Of a stretch of DNA of 11,249 nucleotides, positions 1 to 9,731 are shown one piece after another. A program made the translations under genes and the position numbers. The notes below the pieces were generated by a model. It was not told where the DNA came from. It was given only the letters and a program-made list of their open reading frames with translations, and searched no databases. The stretch is from a virus. Taxonomy: Duplodnaviria; Heunggongvirae; Uroviricota; Caudoviricetes. The stretch's first letter is position 1; the number at the start of each line of letters is the position of its first letter. The stretch lies in IMG/VR virus record IMGVR_UViG_2859793810_000003, one strand, 5' to 3'.

Positions 1-819
1 ATGTGTCAGGTATTTGGTGTATCCAGGAGCGGTTATTACAACTGGGTACAGCATGAACCCTCAGACAGAAAACAAAGTGATGAGCGGCTAAAACCGGAGA
101 TTAAGGTGGCACATATCCGCACTCGCGAAACATATGGAACCCGGCGGCTCCAGACGGAGCTGGCAGAGAATGGCATCATCGTTGGTCGTGACCGACTGGC
201 ACGTCTTCGTAAGGAGCTGAGGCTACGCTGTAAGCAGAAACGCAAGTTCAGAGCGACTACGAACCCGAACCACAATCTGCCAGTTGCGCCAAATCTGCTG
301 AACCAGACGTTCGCTCCTACAGCACCAAATCAGGTCTGGGTGGCGGACCTGACGTATGTTGCCACACAGGAGGGATGGTTGTACCTCGCTGGCATCAAAG
401 ATGTTTATACGTGTGAAATTGTCGGCTACGCCATGGGAGAGCGCATGACAAAAGAGCTGACAGGTAAAGCCCTGTTTATGGCGCTCAGGAGCCAGCGCCC
501 ACCTGCCGGGCTAATCCACCACTCTGATCGAGGTTCACAGTACTGCGCATACGATTACCGGGTCATACAGGAGCAGTCTGGTCTGAAAACATCAATGTCG
601 CGTAAAGGTAACTGTTACGACAACGCTCCGATGGAAAGCTTCTGGGGAACGCTGAAAAATGAGAGCCTGAGCCACTATCGTTTTAATAACCGGGATGAAG
701 CCATCTCAGTAATACGGGAATACATTGAGATTTTCTACAATCGTCAGCGTCGTCACTCTCGTCTGGGGAATATCTCCCCGGCAGCCTTCAGGGAAAAATA
801 TCATCAGATGACTGCTTAA
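1..819 (+). CDS. IS3-family transposase OrfB (DDE integrase catalytic region), IS600-like; the OrfAB frame presumably continues upstream of the window
   Basis: 272-aa ORF with IS3-family OrfB character (HHSDRGSQY, CYDNAPMESFW motifs); one nucleotide different at the C-terminus from the copy at 8826-9644 (HQMTA vs HQMAA). Confidence 0.85.
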   Translation: MCQVFGVSRSGYYNWVQHEPSDRKQSDERLKPEIKVAHIRTRETYGTRRLQTELAENGIIVGRDRLARLRKELRLRCKQKRKFRATTNPNHNLPVAPNLLNQTFAPTAPNQVWVADLTYVATQEGWLYLAGIKDVYTCEIVGYAMGERMTKELTGKALFMALRSQRPPAGLIHHSDRGSQYCAYDYRVIQEQSGLKTSMSRKGNCYDNAPMESFWGTLKNESLSHYRFNNRDEAISVIREYIEIFYNRQRRHSRLGNISPAAFREKYHQMTA

Positions 820-862
820 AAAAAGAACAAATGGTAGTGTCCGCTATTGCCAGTACACCTCA
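1..862 (+). mobile_element. IS3-family insertion sequence (IS600-like), right-hand portion only; left end lies outside the window
   Basis: OrfB-type transposase ORF at 1-819; a near-identical inverted copy sits at 8783-9731; both copies share the same 43 bp after the orfB stop and diverge immediately after ...cagtacacctca (862 here), which defines the IS right end with the CA terminus typical of IS3-family elements. IS600 assignment is from memory of the OrfB sequence. Confidence 0.8.
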
Positions 863-1169
863 CTGACATGCTAAAGCAAAAAATAGATGAATAAGTTGAG
901 TTGTGCATATGTAGCCTGACCGTCACAAAGTATATGGTGTCTGTACCAGTAAGATGATGGCCGGACTCTTTAAAAAAGAGCTGACCTGCACAATACAGGA
1001 TGGACTTAGCAATGGCTGCTCCTGGCACAAAGCGGACAGTGATCACCGTTCTTACGACTACTTTCTGACTTCCTTCGTGACTTGCCCTAAGCATGTTTGA
1101 AGTGGCACACTGAATTTGGCCACCTGAACAGAGGTGATATGCTCACCTCAGAACAACACAGGTGCTCCA

Positions 1170-1472
1170 ATGAAAAAAAGAAATTTTAGCGCAGAGTTTA
1201 AACGCGAATCCGCTCAACTGGTTGTTGACCAGAAATACACGGTGGCAGATGCCGCCAAAGCTATGGATGTTGGCCTTTCCACAATGACAAGATGGGTCAA
1301 ACAACTGCGTGATGAGCGTCAGGGCAAAACACCAAAAGCCTCCCCCATTACCCCGGAACAAATTGAAATCCGTGAGCTCAGGAAAAAGCTACAACGCATT
1401 GAAATGGAGAATGAAATATTAAAAAAGGCTACCGCGCTCTTGATGTCAGACTCCCTGAACAGTTCTCGATAA
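1170..1472 (+). CDS. IS911 OrfA (HTH / leucine-zipper transposition regulator)
   Basis: Protein [21 protein letters not shown]...[18 protein letters not shown] recognised as IS911 OrfA; the ORF-track start at 1134 is an upstream in-frame extension, the ATG at 1170 is the likely start. Confidence 0.9.
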
Positions 1473-1498
1473 TCGGGAAACTCAGAGCGCATTATCCT

Positions 1499-2338
1499 GT
1501 GGTCACACTCTGCCATGTGTTCGGGGTTCATCGCAGCAGCTACAGATACTGGAAAAACCGTCCTGAAAAACCAGACGGCAGACGGGCTGTATTACGCAGT
1601 CAGGTACTTGAGCTACATGGCATCAGCCACGGTTCGGCCGGAGCAAGAAGCATCGCCACAATGGCAACCCGGAGAGGCTACCAGATGGGACGCTGGCTTG
1701 CTGGCAGGCTCATGAAAGAGCTGGGGCTGGTCAGCTGTCAGCAGCCGACTCACCGGTATAAACGTGGTGGTCATGAACATGTTGCTATCCCTAACTACCT
1801 TGAAAGGCAGTTCGCCGTGACCGAGCCAAATCAGGTGTGGTGCGGTGATGTGACCTATATCTGGACGGGTAAGCGCTGGGCGTACCTCGCCGTTGTTCTC
1901 GACCTGTTCGCAAGAAAACCAGTGGGCTGGGCCATGTCGTTCTCGCCGGACAGCAGGCTCACCATGAAAGCGCTGGAAATGGCATGGGAAACCCGTGGTA
2001 AGCCCGGCGGGGTGATGTTCCACAGCGATCAGGGCAGTCATTATACGAGCAGGCAGTTCCGGCAGTTATTGTGGCGATACCAGATCAGACAGAGTATGAG
2101 CCGGCGCGGAAACTGCTGGGATAACAGCCCAATGGAACGCTTCTTCAGGAGTCTGAAGAACGAATGGATGCCGGTGGTGGGTTACGTAAGCTTCAGCGAG
2201 GCAGCTCACGCCATAACGGACTATATCGTTGGATATTACAGTGCACTAAGACCGCACGAATATAACGGTGGGTTACCCCCAAACGAATCGGAAAATCGAT
2301 ACTGGAAAAACTCTAACTCGGTGGCCAGTTTTTGTTGA
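1499..2338 (+). CDS. IS911 OrfB (DDE transposase catalytic domain); in vivo made mainly as the OrfAB fusion by -1 frameshifting
   Basis: 279-aa ORF in the -1 frame relative to orfA, protein recognised as IS911 OrfB; ORF-track start is GTG, the true OrfB frame opens further upstream. Confidence 0.9.
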
Positions 2339-2346
2339 CCACTTCA

Positions 2347-8110: not shown

Positions 8111-8314
8111 ATGTTGGAAAGAACCATGGCATTTAAACACTATGATGTTGTCAGGGCGGCGCCGCCGTCAGATCTTGCGGAAAAGCTGACACATAAACTG
8201 AAAGAGGGCTGGCAGCCGTTTGGTAGTCCGGTGGCCATAACCCCTTATACCCTGATGCAGGCGATTGCAGCAGAAGGTGATGTGGTGGTCAGTGGTGCAA
8301 CTGAGCCGGAGTGA
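8111..8314 (+). CDS. Small conserved lambdoid late-region protein (family uncertain); likely start at ATG 8126
   Basis: ORF MAFKHYDVVRAAPPSDLAEKLTHKLKEGWQPFGSPVAITPYTLMQAIAAEGDVVVSGATEPE with GGAAAG 4 nt before the 8126 ATG; sequence feels familiar from E. coli prophages but I cannot name the family reliably. Confidence 0.5.
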   Translation: MLERTMAFKHYDVVRAAPPSDLAEKLTHKLKEGWQPFGSPVAITPYTLMQAIAAEGDVVVSGATEPE

Positions 8315-8556
8315 TACTACGTCATCGTACTGGCCCGGCATTCCAGGCCATAAAAGACAGTCTGGCAGTGGGACTAAATGCACTGACGCTGACGGATATT
8401 ACCAAAAATGCAACGTATGGCGTTGAGATAGAAAGTCTGGTGCTGGAGATAAATGCACCGGCATCATCATAAAAAGTGAGCCAGTCAAATGGAAGGTATC
8501 GTTAAACTCACCGGTAGTGTCAGTGGGTCGTCTGAGACGCTTGCATGAGTTATCAG

Positions 8557-8588
8557 AGCCATCAGTAGTTAACTGGTGGCTTTTTTAT
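8557..8588 (+). terminator. Putative rho-independent terminator upstream of the holin gene
   Basis: agccatcag-tagttaa-ctggtggct (one mismatch) followed by TTTTTTATTG. Confidence 0.45.
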
Positions 8589-8621
8589 TGTTGTCAGCTT
8601 CCGGATAACGGGAGACGGGGT

Positions 8622-8782
8622 ATGGACCAGATGGAAAAAATCACAACAGGTGTGTCATACACCACGTCAGCGGTGGGAACGGGCTACTGGTTCCTGCAGT
8701 TGCTGGACAGGGTTTCCCCGTCTCAGTGGGCGGCAATAGGCGTGCTGGGGAGTCTGCTGTTTGGGCTGCTGACATATCTGAC
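8622..8782 (+). pseudogene. Phage-21-type pinholin (S21 family) gene, 3'-truncated by IS insertion; dual-start motif M-D-Q-M
   Basis: [54 protein letters not shown] resembles S21 pinholin ([45 protein letters not shown]... as recalled); Shine-Dalgarno GGAGA upstream; the reading frame runs into the IS600-like right end at 8783 and terminates after 6 IS-derived codons. Confidence 0.8.
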
Positions 8783-9731
8783 TGAGGTGTACTGGCAATA
8801 GCGGACACTACCATTTGTTCTTTTTTTAAGCAGCCATCTGATGATATTTTTCCCTGAAGGCTGCCGGGGAGATATTCCCCAGACGAGAGTGACGACGCTG
8901 ACGATTGTAGAAAATCTCAATGTATTCCCGTATTACTGAGATGGCTTCATCCCGGTTATTAAAACGATAGTGGCTCAGGCTCTCATTTTTCAGCGTTCCC
9001 CAGAAGCTTTCCATCGGAGCGTTGTCGTAACAGTTACCTTTACGCGACATTGATGTTTTCAGACCAGACTGCTCCTGTATGACCCGGTAATCGTATGCGC
9101 AGTACTGTGAACCTCGATCAGAGTGGTGGATTAGCCCGGCAGGTGGGCGCTGGCTCCTGAGCGCCATAAACAGGGCTTTACCTGTCAGCTCTTTTGTCAT
9201 GCGCTCTCCCATGGCGTAGCCGACAATTTCACACGTATAAACATCTTTGATGCCAGCGAGGTACAACCATCCCTCCTGTGTGGCAACATACGTCAGGTCC
9301 GCCACCCAGACCTGATTTGGTGCTGTAGGAGCGAACGTCTGGTTCAGCAGATTTGGCGCAACTGGCAGATTGTGGTTCGGGTTCGTAGTCGCTCTGAACT
9401 TGCGTTTCTGCTTACAGCGTAGCCTCAGCTCCTTACGAAGACGTGCCAGTCGGTCACGACCAACGATGATGCCATTCTCTGCCAGCTCCGTCTGGAGCCG
9501 CCGGGTTCCATATGTTTCGCGAGTGCGGATATGTGCCACCTTAATCTCCGGTTTTAGCCGCTCATCACTTTGTTTTCTGTCTGAGGGTTCATGCTGTACC
9601 CAGTTGTAATAACCGCTCCTGGATACACCAAATACCTGACACATCGCTTCAATGGGAAATTGTTGTCGCCATTGTTCGATTAACGCGTATTTTTCAGCGA
9701 CTCCTGTGCAAAATACGCTGTTGCTTTTTTT
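8783..9731 (-). mobile_element. IS3-family insertion sequence (IS600-like), second copy, inverted relative to the first; left portion (IRL and most of orfA) missing, truncated by IS1
   Basis: Right end identical to the copy at 1-862 up to the CA terminus (reverse complement at 8783); the OrfAB reading frame continues upstream of the orfB ATG (…KYALIEQWRQQFPIEAMCQVF) and is cut at 9731 directly at an A-rich slippery-like heptamer. Confidence 0.85.
8826..9644 (-). CDS. IS3-family transposase OrfB (IS600-like), copy 2
   Basis: 272-aa ORF, one amino-acid different from the ORF at 1-819. Confidence 0.85.
   Translation of the reverse strand: MCQVFGVSRSGYYNWVQHEPSDRKQSDERLKPEIKVAHIRTRETYGTRRLQTELAENGIIVGRDRLARLRKELRLRCKQKRKFRATTNPNHNLPVAPNLLNQTFAPTAPNQVWVADLTYVATQEGWLYLAGIKDVYTCEIVGYAMGERMTKELTGKALFMALRSQRPPAGLIHHSDRGSQYCAYDYRVIQEQSGLKTSMSRKGNCYDNAPMESFWGTLKNESLSHYRFNNRDEAISVIREYIEIFYNRQRRHSRLGNISPAAFREKYHQMAA

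Follow-up and report, generated by a model that had tools for sequence, protein, structure and literature searches.

A Qin prophage remnant between inverted IS600 copies occurs in two orientations among Shigella flexneri genome assemblies

The DNA analyzed here is the IMG/VR record IMGVR_UViG_2859793810_000003, a stretch of 11,249 nucleotides (nt) filed under Caudoviricetes, which we call the window. It contains a segment of prophage DNA bracketed by two oppositely oriented copies of the insertion sequence (IS) IS600, and the orientation of this segment between its outer flanks is the subject of this report. The window is 100% identical to CP026788.1 over 11,094 nt aligned, and shows one mismatch to AE014073.1, which we take to be strain 2457T. 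CP026788 is the genome of S. flexneri 2a strain ATCC 29903 (PMC9455713). To judge from this identity, the window is a piece of the S. flexneri 2a chromosome. The whole arrangement, counted as present when at least 80% of the window is covered, occurs in 0 of 5426 complete Escherichia coli genomes.

Where individual loci have to be told apart, we use labels such as L013 (CP026788.1), L014 (AE014073.1), L009 (strain G1663), L025 (CP178302.1), and L029 (an older assembly of strain M90T). The window is organized as follows.

1-862, plus strand: IS600 copy 1, consisting of orfB (1-819, 272 amino acids) and the right end; 99.5% identical to annotated IS600, with Pfam matches HTH_21, rve, rve_3, and rve_2 on the identical L013 gene.
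863-1097, minus strand: ydfV', a remnant of prophage Qin, with IS600 inserted near the 3' end of ydfV; assigned from 99.6% identity to ydfV of E. coli K-12 and from the breakpoints.
1098-2346, plus strand: IS911, with orfA at 1170-1472 and orfB at 1499-2338; 99.1% identical to annotated IS911, and delimited by its junctions and by the empty site in L010.
2347-8621, plus strand: unique Qin-type prophage genes, assigned from the K-12 Qin map and from Pfam matches on L013.
8622-8782, plus strand: truncated class II holin gene (essQ/essD-like), assigned from PF04971 and from a breakpoint within the holin coding sequence of L024.
8783-9731, minus strand: IS600 copy 2, a remnant corresponding to IS600 nt 316-1264 with orfB intact (8826-9644), assigned by base-by-base comparison.
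9732-10499, minus strand: IS1, 768 bp, with insA and insB on the minus strand, assigned from terminal inverted repeats and Pfam matches Zn_ribbon_InsA and DDE_Tnp_IS1.
10500-11249, plus strand: 3' part of the fimbrial adhesin gene ydeQ, a chromosomal flank that begins at nt 166 of the K-12 coding sequence.

The inverted IS600 copies

A base-by-base comparison of positions 1-862 with the reverse complement of 8783-9644 gave 861 identities in 862 nt, the sole mismatch being A at 811 versus G (on copy 2's own strand) at 8834. A repeat finder reported one long inverted pair with slightly wider limits (1-869 versus 8776-9644), of whose seven extra bases only four match. Homology stops at 862/8783, which is the right end of IS600 (...CACCTCA), and beyond this point the match collapses. 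The sequence of the right ends, ...GCCAGTACACCTCA, is that of an IS3-family terminus. In the source genome, the stretch common to both copies is 949 nt long and also contains one mismatch (948/949). A repeat of such length and identity cannot have originated by chance. The difference at 811/8834 falls in residue 271 of OrfB, where copy 1 encodes Thr and copy 2 Ala. Numbered from the right end, the Thr allele is T52; it is found in 2a-type genomes only, in the full-length copy in either orientation of the segment, and T52 is present in both copies in L004 and L012.

The 99.5% identity of positions 1-862 is a full-length value, measured against features that the Prokaryotic Genome Annotation Pipeline names "IS3-like element IS600 family transposase" in E. 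coli genomes. The limit of copy 1 at position 1 is an edge of the window, which opens at the orfB ATG, and not biology. In the source genome (L013), copy 1 is a complete IS600 of 1264 bp whose left end abuts ydfJ. Its ends, TGAGGTAGCC... and ...GGTACACCTCA, align as imperfect terminal inverted repeats, and it carries orfA (100 amino acids) and orfB (272 amino acids) with Pfam matches HTH_Tnp_1 and rve/rve_3/rve_2. A 3-bp target duplication is absent at this full copy, which is flanked by GGG on the left and, on the right, by CTG or GTC in the two orientations (A and B, respectively) described below. Such unmatched flanks fit an element whose flanks derive from different events (deletion or recombination) and leave its identification as IS600 unaffected.

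Copy 2 comprises only nt 316-1264 of IS600. IS1 stands in place of the left inverted repeat and of all but the last part of orfA. The left-end sequence of IS600 was found nowhere in the window, even when up to three mismatches were allowed. Because it lacks a left end, copy 2 is incapable of transposition and cannot serve as the other outer end of a composite transposon.

A first-pass annotation of the window, made from its letters, had described two near-identical IS600-like copies that differ by a single nucleotide, had placed the second at 8783-9731, and had oriented both right ends toward an enclosed prophage fragment. These statements hold, and the coordinates are exact, with IS1 beginning at 9732. 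Both right ends point at positions 863-8782 (7.9 kb), and the bracketed fragment is of Qin type and runs from relBE to the truncated holin gene. The bracket itself is therefore real as described; that description overlooked the truncation of copy 2 by IS1, which leaves it a remnant, and the presence of IS911 inside the segment.

A third IS600 copy is situated approximately 8 kb beyond ydfJ, after ydeI (L013 19311-20279; L003 19071-19865). It replaces K-12 dgcZ and the genes beyond, and adds scope for IS600-IS600 rearrangements.

Two orientations among S. flexneri genomes

As a probe for the locus, we used the 59-amino-acid holin'::IS600 fusion protein encoded at 8622-8801, which was looked up in public assemblies with 10-kb flanks, and the resulting loci were aligned by blastn. 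Two more look-ups added further genomes, and a scan of species representatives added one junction of orientation A. Eleven further similar places were grouped behind A loci, and two behind B loci.

In orientation A, which is that of the window, the order is ydfI-ydfJ, full IS600 (plus), ydfV'...holin', truncated IS600 (minus), IS1, and 'ydeQ-ydeP-safA-ydeO. In orientation B, the order is ydeP-'ydeQ-IS1, truncated IS600 (plus), ydfV'...holin', full IS600 (minus), and ydfJ-ydfI-ydfZ-ydfH-ydfG-dcp. Among approximately 20 S. flexneri chromosome assemblies examined, at least 14-15 have orientation A and at least five have orientation B. The segment was found at only one chromosomal locus, between ydfJ and ydeQ, in the approximately 20 genomes that carry it, and the outer flanks are unchanged between A and B. 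The expectation in the first-pass annotation that orientation might differ between strains is thus borne out by comparison of related genomes.

Genomes with orientation A are CP026788, AE014073, CP106857, CP100044, CP044152, CP045941, CP004056, CP000266 (presumably strain 8401), CP037923 (together with CM001474, from the same strain, M90T), CP102221, CP182547, CP182555, NEDR01000002, and CP178302. Those with orientation B are CP026765, CP049606, LR213452, CP034060, and CP007037. Of these, CP007037 is G1663 (serotype 2a), CP044152 is AR-0425 (2a), CP034060 is FDAARGOS_535 (1b), CP045941 is AUSMDU00010535 (2a), and CP037923 is M90T (5a) (PMC9455713). The loci aligned by blastn include both states (A in L002, L004, L005, L008, and L010; B in L003, L006, L007, L009, and L011).

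Four elementary junctions are the same in all genomes: the IS600 left end with ydfJ, the IS600 interior with IS1, a right end with ydfV', and a right end with holin'. Only the pairing of these junctions differs, and this pattern points to a reciprocal exchange inside the IS600 homology.

Explanations for the two orientations

We consider it very probable that homologous recombination between the inverted IS600 copies flips the Qin remnant, that strains carry either state, and that the process is passive, being neither a programmed switch nor a transposon. The shared IS600 stretch of 949 bp (99.9% identical) would serve as a substrate for general (RecA-type) homologous recombination, and a single reciprocal crossover within it would turn the segment while both outer flanks stay put. 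The flip would then be a passive by-product of the IS load. We infer that it depends on RecA, and it is probably neutral, save for the direction in which the enclosed genes lie with respect to replication. Because the same IS600 DNA lies within approximately 0.9 kb of each border in both states, no promoter-gene fusion changes, and a local effect on expression is unlikely.

Alternatively, there might be only one true orientation, and B might reflect assemblies in which a unique contig between 0.95-kb inverted repeats was placed the wrong way round. Some assemblies invite this suspicion. G1663 resembles an A genome in which only the unique segment is turned, with every IS600 single-nucleotide polymorphism (SNP), including site 52, on the outer flank, and a mis-oriented contig would look alike. 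The older M90T assembly (L029) has runs of N in both IS600 copies, and many small errors are present in some loci (L002 and L025). However, B occurs in five independent assemblies, and three of the B loci (L003, L007, and L011) share a segment SNP haplotype together with a private 319-bp deletion in ydeQ, so orientation tracks lineage. Moreover, A and B occur within one accession series (CP026788 is A and CP026765 is B), which we assume to come from long-read projects with reads that easily span 10 kb. An assembly artefact as the general explanation is therefore quite unlikely. G1663 also provides a case for an end-specific inversion made by IS600 transposase acting on the two inward right ends, since in a comparison of 2a-type A genomes with this B genome, all informative IS600 sites, including site 52, go with the outer flanks, as if the exchange had occurred at or near the right ends. 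The same pattern is explained more simply by a crossover in the first 51 nt, by gene conversion, or by mis-orientation. In 8401-type genomes, IS600 site 768 goes with the inner flank, so the exchange would lie 769-924 nt from the right end. IS3-family elements transpose by a copy-out/paste-in mechanism, and synapsis of these ends would yield deletion- or circle-type products, not a clean inversion. We regard a transposase-made inversion as very unlikely.

The first-pass annotation had also raised the possibility that the IS600 pair moves the relBE-to-holin segment as a composite unit. As in composite transposons of the Tn10 or Tn5 type, two inverted copies of one IS surround a cargo, which here includes toxin-antitoxin genes, and copy 1 is complete in the source genome, with intact orfA and orfB. 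Unlike those transposons, the unit has only one outward-facing IS600 end, because copy 2 has lost IS600 nt 1-315 and with them its outer end and transposase start. Both ends that point inward are right ends; they bound the remainder of the chromosome, not the segment. With no target duplication at the full copy and a segment confined to one locus, the structure is not a member of this class, and mobilization as a unit is contradicted by the data to the point that we give it almost no credence. A programmed invertible switch that alters expression of enclosed or neighboring genes is equally hard to credit. In nature the two orientations both persist, more than one flip may have happened, and in having a DNA segment in two orientations the locus resembles the Hin/Gin/Pin and Fim systems. 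In contrast to those systems, the repeats are IS copies of approximately 0.95 kb with exchange points that seem to vary, not short crossover sites, and both borders are buried in at least 0.9 kb of the same IS sequence, such that no promoter is moved and no promoter-gene junction is altered. A dedicated recombinase is also missing: no recombinase/invertase or resolvase/integrase Pfam family was detected among the genes called in L013, whose locus is identical, and on the K-12 Qin map the Qin invertase gene pinQ falls in the deleted part of the prophage. A variant of the recombination model holds that flipping is recurrent and fast, that cultures are mixed, and that one orientation is favored per lineage through read-through or replication-direction effects on relBE/hokD, the Q-tRNA region, and the iraM-like gene, amounting to accidental phase variation. 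We judge this variant unlikely. If flipping were indeed frequent and orientation affected expression, the locus would add modestly to the known cases of IS-driven phase variation.

Several observations weigh against simple recombination between the IS600 copies. The orientation data consist of assembled genomes compared between strains. T52 (window position 811) accompanies the full-length copy both in A genomes and in the B genome G1663, although it lies just 52 nt from the right end; to account for this pattern, the crossover must have fallen within the first 51 nt, or gene conversion must have acted, or the G1663 assembly must be mis-oriented. In addition, the region is not tree-like, because sites 3886 and 4029 conflict and a 25-bp allele at the IS600/IS1 junction (see below) is mosaic, so we can only infer the number of events and the ancestral state.

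Recombination between the IS600 copies may have occurred repeatedly. Orientation A is present on M90T-type, 8401-type, and 2a-type haplotypes of the segment, and B on L006-type and 1b/1c-type haplotypes and, in G1663, on a 2a-type haplotype. Five derived SNPs (4581, 4614, 5863, 7561, and 7940) are common to G1663 (B) and the 2a A strains and absent from M90T and 8401 (both A) and from the other B strains; when paired with orientation, these SNPs fail the four-gamete test. Site 768 of IS600 goes with the inner flank in 8401-type A genomes and, in 2a-type A genomes, with the type of copy (full or truncated). This difference in linkage, which rests on one or two SNPs, would imply two crossover positions, as is typical of homologous recombination. 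Together, the segment SNPs and the site 768 linkage hint at two or more independent flips. The two IS600 copies are homogenized in L003, L006, L004, and L012, and some SNPs are common to both copies of one genome (665A, private to L010, and T52/G449 in L012). These observations suggest gene conversion between the copies or, alternatively, an artefact of repeat polishing.

Inversions of this kind have precedents. Nie et al. (2006) described six inversions between S. flexneri strains 8401 and 301 that are probably IS-mediated, and attributed one of them to IS600 (PMC1550401). Parallel IS-associated inversions across Shigella were reported by Seferbekova et al. (PMC8072062). As in those cases, inverted copies of one IS provide portable homology, breakpoints lie in the IS, and orientation varies by strain. 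The present case differs in being small (7.9 kb), in lying inside a decayed prophage, and in that one partner is a dead IS remnant. It is possibly the same as the published IS600 inversion, for which the text of the paper gives no coordinates (PMC1550401). In kind, it is an ordinary repeat-mediated inversion of a type already known, and involves no new mechanism.

The two orientations constitute a verified structural polymorphism of S. flexneri reference genomes, with ATCC 29903, 2457T, M90T, and 8401 in state A and G1663, FDAARGOS_535, and others in state B. The locus can mislead synteny analyses, scaffolding, and calls of structural variants. It is also a small, clean case in which even a dead IS remnant goes on reshaping the genome.

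The IS1 joint, the ancestral state, and the enclosed prophage genes

IS1, with terminal repeats at 9732-10499, abuts IS600 nt 316, so that copy 2 ends at 9731. Nucleotide 316 lies in an A-run at the orfA/orfB frameshift region, and IS1 joins it to nt 166 of ydeQ. In K-12, ydeQ lies approximately 46 kb beyond Qin on the same strand. The IS600/IS1/ydeQ joint is best explained by a large IS1-mediated inversion. The reciprocal junction predicted by such an event (the 5' part of ydeQ plus IS1) was not found in the species-representative collection, in which only one Shigella-like genome has the locus, with many small errors there. We also considered a simple deletion joint, in which holin'-IS600-IS1-'ydeQ would be collinear with K-12. 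This candidate was discarded, since the genes from ydfJ to ydeI are present, inverted, across the segment.

By alignment, the K-12 order is the segment (plus), the ydfJ-ydeI block (plus), approximately 30 kb of other DNA, and the ydeQ-ydeP block (plus). In B, the segment is still joined to the ydfJ block as in K-12, minus a holin-to-ydfJ deletion, and the ydeQ block is inverted on the other side. A single large inversion separates B from K-12; its plausible endpoints are an IS1 within the IS600 that ydfV carries and another IS1 located in ydeQ. A requires the large inversion of B plus an extra flip of the 7.9-kb segment. Of the segment haplotypes, the one nearest the E. coli outgroup is that of L006, a B locus. 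From the K-12 order and the L006 haplotype, B is probably ancestral, and the window (A) would represent the derived, flipped state.

Two alleles exist at the IS600/IS1 junction. In the first, 949 nt of IS600 are kept (the window, 2457T, G1663, and M90T CP037923). In the second, which lacks positions 9707-9731, 924 nt are kept (8401, AR-0425, and every B genome other than G1663). The 25-bp loss is not accounted for by microhomology, and the distribution of the alleles is mosaic relative to the SNP haplotypes of the adjacent segment. The loss could reflect repeated deletion beside IS1, recombination across lineages, or conversion by a paralogous junction. A case for repeated flips built on this allele (949 versus 924) by four-gamete reasoning was not kept as strong evidence, because the allele conflicts with the rooted SNP pattern.

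The surroundings of the joint vary further. The 319-bp ydeQ deletion of L003, L007, and L011 (B, 1b/1c-type) adjoins the other end of IS1 and corresponds to window positions 10501-10819, and in L005 the IS600 remnant is truncated differently and a run of N comes after it. The IS1/'ydeQ junction also occurs in different surroundings in two Shigella-like genomes, L031 (CP045522.1) and L033 (AFOW01000022.1). In L031, IS911 follows a nearly complete IS600 that occupies the same ydfV site, and L033 has three IS1 copies and a fimbrial usher gene upstream. Given the junction in these genomes, the insertion of IS1 in ydeQ may predate the S. flexneri rearrangement. L025 (CP178302.1, 4.44 Mb, deposited as "Escherichia coli strain ECMA0423") has both the holin'::IS600 junction specific to S. 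flexneri and the IS600/IS1/ydeQ joint with 924 nt of IS600, and has the appearance of a Shigella-type genome entered under E. coli.

By homology, the DNA between the IS600 copies is a Qin prophage remnant that extends from ydfV' to the truncated holin gene, with IS911 inside. Its genes and the elements next to them are listed below.

2398-2637, plus strand: relB, Qin-type.
2637-2924, plus strand: relE, Qin-type.
2996-3151, plus strand: hokD, Qin-type.
3369-3620, plus strand: rem, Qin-type.
3967-5016, plus strand: ydfU (DUF968), Qin-type.
5029-5385, plus strand: rusA, as in other lambdoid prophages.
5400-6221, plus strand: antiterminator Q, as in other lambdoid prophages.
6366-6441: tRNA with anticodon CAT, called Met by ARAGORN and annotated as tRNA-Ile in the homologous E. 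coli prophage L024.
6543-6619: tRNA-Arg (TCT).
7531-7866, minus strand: PmrD/IraM-like gene.
8126-8314, plus strand: DUF1737 gene.

The order and orientation of genes from ydfV through ydfU are the same as in K-12 Qin, with DNA identity of 98.8-99.6% over ydfV and 92-93% over positions 2347-5016, and the same kind of holin stands at the end of the segment. Unlike K-12 Qin, the Shigella segment past ydfU (rusA, Q, two tRNA genes, and the iraM-like gene) corresponds to other E. coli lambdoid prophages, with 97% identity to L024. The two tRNA genes downstream of the antiterminator form the usual lambdoid tRNA cluster. Approximately 54 of the 71 holin codons are left, cut by the IS600 right end, and the frame continues to a stop at 8801 inside IS600. 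Everything past mid-holin is deleted from the Shigella version of Qin.

IS911 is a simple insertion in ydfV, with a 3-bp GTT duplication at 1095-1097 and 2347-2349. Among the genomes examined, the ATCC 29903/2457T group (L012-L016) alone has it at this site, and the other S. flexneri loci are empty. Positions 863-1096 had been considered as a fragment of another IS3-family transposase on account of a 29-nt, 72% repeat; this candidate was rejected because the DNA is 99.6% identical to K-12 ydfV and the short match is at chance level. A 21-nt direct repeat (AGAATTATTTTTCTGATGTTG) precedes the DUF1737 gene, at 7942-7962 and 8096-8116; its copies are 95% identical and 154 nt apart.

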